Source of the DNA: Candidatus Thorarchaeota archaeon | GTDB taxonomy: Archaea; Asgardarchaeota; Thorarchaeia; Thorarchaeales; Thorarchaeaceae | Assembly: GCA_963726195.1 (NCBI GenBank) | Contig: CAVSBO010000003.1 | Span: 288,001 to 352,000, forward strand | DNA length: 64,000 nucleotides | Direction of reading: 5' to 3' | Translations under genes and position numbers: made by a program | Shown here: positions 48,785 through 50,111 of the stretch, piece by piece | How positions within the stretch are numbered: position 1 is the first letter of the stretch | Layout: every line of letters begins with the position of its first letter | Notes under the pieces: model-generated | What the model was told of the DNA's origin: nothing | Database searches by the model: none | The model's input: the letters and a program-made list of their open reading frames with translations, nothing else

Positions 48785-49130
48785 GATTAATCTCACCAAG
48801 CTGTCACGTGGCTGCCTTGAGCCCTGTCCGATAACGAGAATTAGCGTCAGTCCATATAACGCTTGGGACTCGCGTGTTTTTCCACATAGGATACCATCTG
48901 TCGTTTCTGGTTCTCTTCTTCTCCAAGCCTATCTTGTGGGGCCAGAGTAAGCATCGGACCAATCTCGAACGTCCTTCTTCTTGCCCCACGGCGTATTTTC
49001 TGTATTATACTCTGCTATGACTTTCCTTCAATTGCCGATAGCAGGTGCTTTTCGCAGGTAATTCTTGTCCACAACTTGCTTGAGAATGAAATCCGCCAAA
49101 TCTGCTCTTGAGATGGCTGTTCCTACTTGA

Positions 49131-49319
49131 CCGTTCATTGTTAGTTGGACAAAGTTGGACACAGGAGTCTCTGTCCGCCCAGAAACGGCACTGGGCTCAA
49201 ACTCCTTGAGGTCAAGTTTGTGTCGTTTCAACCTCGAAGGCTGATTCCTTATCAGGGCATATAAGCTCCTACGAGGAGGTGTCCAAGTTTGTCCCAGCTT
49301 TCTGCAGCTGCCGCGTGCC
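49131..49319. mobile_element. ~185-bp non-coding inserted element, copy L (MITE-like, IS607-like core)
   Basis: Flanked by CC on both sides; paired TTGGACA/TGTCC(A/C)A subterminal motifs; homologous to copy R in inverted orientation. Confidence 0.75.
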
Positions 49320-49529
49320 CTGAGTGCGAGAGCTTCAATTGACGCGCTCAATTTCAGAGCGAAAGCAACGATTGCGCTGGTAAAACTCATGATGCGTCCA
49401 GCATACGAAGAGATTGTCCACGTTGCAGAAATTGTCCGGGGCTCCGATCGCGATCGGACGATAGTACGCTTATCATTACTCAACAATAATCCCAAATCCG
49501 GTAACGTTAGAGTCGGCTACATAAGCAAG

Positions 49530-49716
49530 GGTTGACAACAGCTGCATAGAAGTTGGACAATCTTGGACATTCTGGAGTAGGAGCTTAAATAGCTCGGACC
49601 AGACTTCTCTTTGAGGTTGACTCGACACACTCCAGCCTCAAGGAGTACGACCCCAGTGCCGTTTCTGGGCGGACAGAGACTCCTGTGTCCAACTTTGTCC
49701 AACTAACAATGAACGG
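49530..49716. mobile_element. ~185-bp non-coding inserted element, copy R (inverted relative to L)
   Basis: Flanked by GG(T) on both sides; 49652-49717 is the exact reverse complement of 49130-49195. Confidence 0.75.
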
Positions 49717-50111
49717 TAGATGTTATGATGAGCTGGCGTACGCCCTGACTCTCCATCGCGGCAAGTATGTTTCGCATTCCTTGCGCAAGTGGCTTTCCCT
49801 TCTTTCGGGCGCGCGGACCAAGCGTGCTAATGACCGCATCCGCGGCGTTCATTGCGGCCGCAATTGCCTCTTGATCTGACAATTCGCCTTAGACAACCTC
49901 CAAGTGTTCGTTCTGCATGTTGAGCTTGGAAGGGTTGCGAACGTATGCAACAATGTCATTTCCTGAAGCAAGAGCTTGTTCTACAACAGGTCTTCCTGTG
50001 CGTCCGGTTGCGCCAAAAACCAGCAGTTTCATCTTTCATCCTCTTGTATGTAGTACTTCAAATTCCCGTCACATTCATCGATAATCTAATGTCTTCCAAA
50101 GAGCTATCAGT

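Follow-up and report, generated by a model that had tools for sequence, protein, structure and literature searches.

The window, meaning the whole stretch of 64,000 nt of Candidatus Thorarchaeota DNA that was analysed, contains a gene coding for a NAD(P)H-binding protein (NmrA/SDR-like, 49028-50032, minus strand) within which two related short repeats are found in opposite orientation, with 210 bp between them. Both have a CC/GG dinucleotide as core, and what a previous sequence-only reading of the region had noticed was confirmed. The features of this region are:

49028-49130, minus strand, C-terminal 34 codons and stop of the interrupted gene (Pfam mapping)
49131-49319, minus strand, mini-element copy A (subfamily 1), ~188 bp, with LE at 49319 and RE at 49131
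49131-32 and 49318-19, core dinucleotide CC of copy A, included in its limits
49145-49161, plus strand, RE heptamer pair TTGGACA of copy A, with 10-bp phasing, 13 nt from the end
49259-49272, minus strand, GTAGGAGC + TTATAT box of copy A, archaeal TATA-like, ~25 nt upstream of stem 1
49280-49296, minus strand, LE heptamer pair TGGGACA / TTGGACA of copy A, ~22 nt from the end
49320-49529, plus strand, middle 70 codons of the interrupted gene, on the opposite strand to its remainder
49530-49716, plus strand, mini-element copy B (subfamily 2), ~188 bp, with LE at 49530 and RE at 49716
49530-31 and 49715-16, core GG of copy B, included in its limits
49553-49569, plus strand, LE heptamer pair of copy B (motif search)
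49577-49591, plus strand, GTAGGAGC + TTAAATA box of copy B, centre ~49588, 25 nt before the stem-1 GAGG (49613)
49686-49702, minus strand, RE heptamer pair of copy B (motif search)
49717-50032, minus strand, N-terminal 105 codons of the interrupted gene (Pfam mapping)

When both copies are excised with one CC kept at each site, and the 210-bp segment between them (49320-49529) is flipped, a frame of 210 codons with one TAA is recovered, and this frame is broken if zero or two CC are kept per site. The four pieces of the gene are collinear on the Pfam profile NAD_binding_10 (positions 1-44, 46-97, 106-156 and 164-183), the third one being strand-reversed. The in-frame TAA (49889-49891, minus strand) is found at codon 48 of the gene, position 45 of the Pfam profile, and represents a third independent lesion. 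The gene is a pseudogene by two insertions, a flipped segment and a nonsense codon. With the segment flipped both reconstructed targets read A-CC-CT, the ACC^CT sequence that had been proposed for them. The orientation of this segment may reflect a real inversion between the inverted copies or an ambiguity of the assembly, which are indistinguishable here because the arms are nearly identical inverted sequences of 65 nt, and assembly from short reads can set a segment located between inverted repeats in either orientation. If the inversion is real, it may come from a homologous or a recombinase-mediated exchange between copies A and B. No orthologue of the middle 70 amino acids was found in 40 relatives at E<=1e-5, which leaves copies A and B without an empty allele for comparison. 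Inserts of ~190 bp such as these account for split or rearranged genes in the annotation of Thorarchaeota.

A repeat search detected the outer arms at 49130-49211 and 49636-49717 (82 nt, 96% complementary). The outermost 66 nt of copies A and B are identical at 65 of the 66 positions and the remainder shows 45-70% identity, so that they belong to two different subfamilies. The window copies are gene-less and lack terminal inverted repeats, and nothing more than CC is duplicated. The lack of inverted repeats and of a long duplication noticed in the sequence-only reading agrees with the junctions described below. The heptamer pairs, putative TnpA binding motifs, appear where they had been placed (four matches at 10-bp spacing against 0.02 expected, one reading TGGGACA). 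The same applies to the TATA-like box of both copies, with two matches of GTAGGAGCTTA(A/T)AT, at 49577-90 (plus) and 49259-72 (minus), against 0.01 expected. A cognate transposase, which the reading had stated to be lacking in the window, is indeed absent from all of its 64,000 nt.

The genome (2.92 Mb in 19 contigs, 88.9% complete) is archaeal, scoring 1320 bits with the archaeal SSU model and 996 with the bacterial one. Further copies, for which the same reading had advised a search, do exist in it: a BLAST search with copy A gave 23 matches, ~17 of them short. The short copies all begin with CC-GTTCATTG and end with (A/G)(A/C)CC, followed mostly by CT. Three of them are clustered within 2 kb at C8:160765-162704, two in tandem 269 bp apart, forming a local insertion cluster. 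Another five matches consist of the 65-nt end only, each overlapping the 3' end of a tnpB-like gene, and in the long elements of contigs C3, C16, C8 and C13 this end adjoins the 3' end of tnpB. In C3 two ends identical in kind to those of the mini-elements are located 8.1 kb apart, and positions 148-184 of copy B (its LE end) are 97% identical to the LE of this element over 37 nt. The 8.1-kb element contains a 208-aa protein with MerR-HTH and resolvase domains, a split tnpB and two genes on the opposite strand (312 and 1223 aa). The C16 copy has both an intact 722-aa TnpB and an intact protein of 1708 aa. The main genes outside the window are:

C3:855049-855672, TnpA, 208 aa, Pfam HTH_17/MerR + Resolvase
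L025:2944-6615, minus strand, giant-protein gene of the C3 element
C16:21689-26815 (L026:1690-6816), minus strand, giant protein P0001, 1708 aa, carried between tnpA and tnpB

By its sequence the 208-aa protein is an IS607 serine transposase: it scores 174 bits against NCBIfam NF033518 transpos_IS607 (cut-off 110), aligning to positions 3-183 of 187, and among PDB sequences it is closest to ISC1904, ISC1926 and IS1535 (E 1e-25 to 1e-17). The 722-aa TnpB retains the RuvC motifs and the zinc finger (GVDRG at 487, YFEDL at 596, HADINAARN at 689 and two CxxC). The longer relatives with tnpA and tnpB that had been expected were thus found in the form of an 8.1-kb element coding for serine TnpA and TnpB between the same ends, and the assignment of the window copies to a non-autonomous IS607-like type stands. 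This genome holds ~17 gene-less copies, four or five elements with tnpB and a single tnpA, the only one found. We believe that both repeats are quite probably protein-less, non-autonomous derivatives of IS607 (MITE-like) that carry the scaffold of a TnpB guide RNA.

An IS200/IS605-type (Y1 HUH) palindrome-associated element, or one of IS110 type with a 2-nt core, would account for the absence of duplication, the fixed motif beside one end and the hairpins near the ends, and protein-less derivatives of IS605 carrying omegaRNAs are known in Geobacillus stearothermophilus (PMC10055086). However, neither the Y1 (PF01797) nor the DEDD (PF01548) transposase was found in the 88.9%-complete genome, the same ends bound an element with serine TnpA, and GG is present at both junctions, as crossover by a serine recombinase predicts. 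The probability of this alternative is negligible. A PATE of the IS200/IS605 type was rejected, given the missing PF01797 and the association of the ends with serine TnpA, and the IS110-like option that the sequence-only reading had considered fell with PF01548.

Four junction sets indicate a precise insertion at a single GG, without target duplication or inverted termini. A methyltransferase ORF was restored when the two flanks of the 8.1-kb element were brought together around one GG. For the copy located at C10:39218 the orthologous site is empty in the genome of a sister species (G002), reading CATCGA-CC-CTTCGG, and the copy is also missing, with the same reading of the site, from C9, a contig of the same assembly that represents a strain with 99.8% identity. 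Recombination at the GG/CC core, as first suggested, fits with the single GG held by the empty sites. Contig C9 (4878 bp) is a strain variant of C10:38799-45002 without the mini-element found at C10:39224-39399. It also has 50 bp at the place where C10 holds an unrelated, non-repeated segment of 1.4 kb (C10:40861-42261). Since the insertion is present in C10 and missing in C9 it is polymorphic within one population, and from this one polymorphic insertion the system is probably still active.

Read in the tnpB sense, the empty allele has AAGGG and then the 20 nt that follow the RE in the occupied allele, which gives a TAM-like motif followed by a would-be guide. The junctions have the form 5'-(A)G-GG-[LE ... 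RE]-GG-T and the target is 5'-AGGG^T. Base -3 is G in 13 of 15 LE flanks, with A-GGG as the most frequent form, and a T is the first base beyond the RE in 43 of the 47 short copies and in 25 of the 30 TnpB-linked ends. Tabulated in this way, the flanks bear out the ACCCT/AGGG consensus that had been read from two sites, AGGG being the most frequent. The RE terminates in ACGG, and all the short copies except one (46/47) end in GG. A GA core instead of GG was found in five of the 30 TnpB-linked right ends, three of them in relatives and the other two at L026:9168-9172 (in C16, the sole intact tnpB copy of the genome) and C8:59432-59493. Such GA-ended copies may have lost their mobility.

The giant gene accompanies tnpB in the C3, C16 and C8 copies. 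Homologues of its product were found in Thorarchaeota only, have 1,342-1,904 aa (mostly 1,530-1,900) and lack Pfam domains. Searches with the giant protein in Pfam, NCBIfam, PDB sequences and Atlas features were blank. A structure model was obtained for residues 1-860 (mean pLDDT 72), in which residues 3-260 resembled Cas1 catalytic domains. Cas1 4n06_B aligned over 195 residues with an rmsd of 4.4 A (VIA Z 12.4); another eight Cas1 entries had Z values of 9-12, and a casposase reached Z 10.5. A RecA/KaiC-like domain was detected at residues ~590-840 (Foldseek E ~1e-5, VIA Z 10-12), and residues 861-1600 gave no Foldseek match at E<=0.001. Furthermore, the protein has an invariant D...ExK motif (D400, E422 and K424) that looks like the one of PD-(D/E)xK nucleases. 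A profile of residues 70-290 retrieved no Cas1 among the PDB sequences and the Pfam Cas1 was not found in a six-frame search of the genome. In this model the protein can be called Cas1-like by structural likeness only, a Z of 12 being near the noise range for helical domains.

Integration by Cas1 or casposases proceeds through staggered cuts that result in long duplications, and makes use of inverted termini. A casposon-like element was rejected, as all four junction sets lack inverted repeats or a long duplication. More generally, the Cas1-like giant protein could be what mobilises these elements, and not the serine TnpA. It travels with tnpB in the three contigs mentioned, its first ~260 residues resemble Cas1 catalytic domains, and in a description of Asgard aCas1-TnpB loci (clades Cas1H-Asgard-1 and -2) aCas1 was proposed as the likely transposase (PMC10691335). 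Against this, the four junction sets have a single GG with neither duplication nor inverted termini, the ends have IS607 anatomy with an IS607 TnpA at the LE, some relatives have tnpA beside tnpB with no giant gene, and the likeness to Cas1 is structural, the sequence searches being blank. We consider this possibility very improbable. The published aCas1-TnpB loci are probably the parent elements of the short copies: they too occur in Asgard hosts, combine a large TnpB with an adjacent giant Cas1-like gene, and have flanking repeats and a conserved T right after the tnpB-proximal end, while serine TnpA, GG junctions and short gene-less copies are not part of that description (PMC10691335). The junctions found here, of serine-recombinase type, bear on the published idea of Cas1 as the mover of Asgard TnpB elements and speak for the serine TnpA.

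The conserved end of the copies corresponds to a structured RNA, which was identified in both with a covariance model (R1) built from 17 copies of this genome:

49131-49240, minus strand, scaffold of copy A, omegaRNA/reRNA-like (R1, 133.5 bits)
49608-49716, plus strand, scaffold of copy B (R1, 127.6 bits)

This RNA of ~105 nt, located at the right end, is made up of stem 1, P2, hairpin 2, P3 and a terminal pseudoknot, and it finishes on the very last bases of the transposon, model matches ending at the GG and the flanks being unrelated. The RE heptamer pair of copy A falls, as RNA, within stem P3. The pseudoknot is formed between the loop of hairpin 2 (CCGUUy) and the terminal rAACGG, which includes the last five bases. 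We carried out a pair test of the five helices with 47 sequences from many genera. In 94% of the cells the bases were paired and 17 of 31 pairs varied on both sides; none of 500 shuffles was as high and sliding the partners by 1-3 columns gave 37-50% paired. P2 and the pseudoknot were outside the search model, so that the alignment is unbiased towards them. For the pseudoknot, double-sided changes were found in three of six pairs among the 30 TnpB-linked ends and in one of five in the short copies. The frequent G-U pairs indicate that the RNA strand is that of tnpB sense, reading outward over the RE. That all five helices show compensatory change from genus to genus points to selection acting on the fold of this RNA. 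The ~100-nt scaffold and the covariation that the sequence-only reading had foreseen at the conserved end are therefore both present, in an RNA that stops at the boundary of the element. No match to Rfam was obtained at gathering thresholds in the whole window.

The TATA box directed towards the conserved end, also part of that reading, is kept ~25 nt upstream of the RNA. This is the usual spacing of archaeal TATA boxes. In short copies of many genera a similar box (TTATATA, TTAAATA or TTTATAT) is found ~20 nt before the start of the model, and the sequence between box and scaffold is variable at a fixed distance. The TnpB-linked ends have no such box, that stretch being coding. An origin of the short-element promoter in that of tnpA is not supported, since nothing comparable precedes tnpA in the 8.1-kb element. 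Relatives do have an AT-rich box ahead of tnpA, but it directly follows the second heptamer, unlike the box of the short elements.

We have surveyed 61 genomes of the family, belonging to 16 genera. The scaffold model, which recognises short copies as well as TnpB-linked right ends, was matched more than 700 times, in 43 of the 61 genomes and 13 of the 16 genera. Actually, the scaffold, counting both kinds of match, is present in more of the searched genomes than the large TnpB (33/61) or TnpA (21/61). At least six other genomes have tnpA, ~5-6 kb of cargo and tnpB arranged on one strand. Some relatives have tnpA adjoining tnpB without the giant gene. Ten genomes, including G013, G003 and G055, have scaffold matches (up to 45 per genome) and gave nothing with the 722-aa TnpB at E<=1e-30. 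In G013 one scaffold match follows a different TnpB-like coding end.

If the short elements act as guide sources, reading through the RE would give the following guides:

49111-49130, minus strand, predicted guide of copy A, the restored site being AGGG + guide
49717-49736, plus strand, predicted guide of copy B, the restored site being AGGG + guide

Elsewhere in the genome, matches to the guides were limited to the empty allele of C9 and one 14-nt match without TAM, likely due to chance. By analogy with CboIStron and ISXfa1, from which scaffold transcription, TnpB loading and cutting are extrapolated, the cycle could be as follows. The serine TnpA (C3:855049-855672) would bind the phased TTGGACA heptamers and mobilise the mini-elements in trans through a circular intermediate and GG crossover. 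The TATA box would drive a transcript of the ~105-nt scaffold continuing ~16-20 nt into the flank, and this short-element RNA would load TnpB in trans. Once the element has left, the nuclease would cut the restored AGGG + guide site and the element would be copied back, the ACGG of the RE shielding occupied sites from TnpB.

Along these lines we propose tentatively, as a possibility well short of even chances, that each short element is a guide-RNA gene standing alone with its own promoter, and that dozens of them per genome feed one or a few large TnpBs in trans. If so, a single TnpB gene would guard many protein-less elements and guide supply would be uncoupled from the nuclease gene. They would be the equivalent of a guide array, dispersed on transposons, in a lineage related closely to eukaryotes, the parent transposon of these self-promoted guide genes would also carry a Cas1-like protein, and RNA-guided transposon retention would extend beyond nuclease-encoding elements.

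The part common to the short copies and the TnpB-linked scaffold of the genome is limited to ~65 nt at the 3' end, comprising hairpin 2, P3, the pseudoknot and the terminus, and the five TnpB-linked ends of the genome score 34.9-57 bits with the scaffold model. The sequences of stem 1 and P2 differ between short elements and TnpB-linked scaffold, so that binding of the short-element RNA by the TnpB of this genome is not assured. In addition, the shared ~65 nt also hold the TnpA motifs and part of the conservation could serve transposition alone. By eye, a positional counterpart of P2 (AUGUYC / GGRCAU) can be recognized in the TnpB-linked ends. Also in these ends (e.g. L024:1001-1125, minus strand) the third positions of two Ala codons in H-A-D...N-A-A co-vary (UGCNG ... 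CN'GCA), which suggests, again by eye, that a stem of the guide-scaffold RNA lies inside the tnpB coding sequence.

The difference in stem 1 and P2 would also fit IS607-type mini-transposons whose conserved RNA is no working TnpB guide. Such an RNA would be a decaying remnant, a means of transposition control or a read-out into neighbour genes, and the outward TATA box would work equally well as a mobile promoter. The ten genomes with scaffold and no large TnpB point in the same direction. However, strong compensatory change in five helices across genera indicates selection on the fold and not decay, the RNA fold ends precisely at the transposon boundary, the loop-to-terminus pseudoknot is kept, as needed by the TnpB of ISXfa1, and the TnpB-linked ends have the positional counterpart of P2 (seen by eye). 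All in all a conserved RNA without guide function appears rather unlikely, and protein-less IS607 derivatives with a TnpB guide-RNA scaffold are the reading that we retain.

Both IS607 with its guide RNA and protein-less derivatives of IS605 with omegaRNA are already known, and in the literature we found no description of gene-less IS607 derivatives with their own promoter, nor anything treating TnpB and Thorarchaeota together. The ends of IS607 have no inverted repeats and no duplication, carry phased direct motifs and have a GG core in ends and target (PMC6188088). In the CboIStron the target/TAM is TGGG, the scaffold ends in UCGG and discrimination takes place at -3 (bioRxiv 10.1101/2023.11.20.567912), and in ISXfa1 the GGG TAM is cut and CGG is spared, a pseudoknot with the guide-flanking bases being needed (bioRxiv 10.1101/2023.08.09.552727). 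With this family (IS607 of H. pylori, IS1535, ISC1926/ISC1904, ISXfa1 and the C. botulinum IStron) the elements described here share the serine TnpA with its N-terminal MerR-like HTH (found in the 8.1-kb element), the direct motifs phased by ~10 bp at unequal distances from ends that lack inverted termini or duplication, and GG at both junctions with a single GG in the empty site. They also share an NGGG target/TAM with an RE ending in CGG, and a scaffold whose end coincides with the RE and whose pseudoknot involves the guide-flanking bases. The differences are that the window copies are gene-less, have an archaeal TATA box of their own and reside in an Asgard host. The scaffold has ~105 nt against ~144 nt in ISXfa1, with a 5' half unlike that of the parent, and the parent itself reaches 8 kb with a 722-aa TnpB and 1,200-1,900-aa cargo, compared with ~2 kb and a TnpB of ~400 aa in known IS607.

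The PATE-like elements of IS200/IS605 (PMC10055086) are also gene-less and mobilised in trans, as we suppose here, and provide a scaffold for a TnpB encoded elsewhere. However, a Y1 HUH transposase moves them as single strands and their hairpins are subterminal, whereas the thorarchaeal elements have the double-strand GG-crossover anatomy of IS607 and a dedicated promoter.
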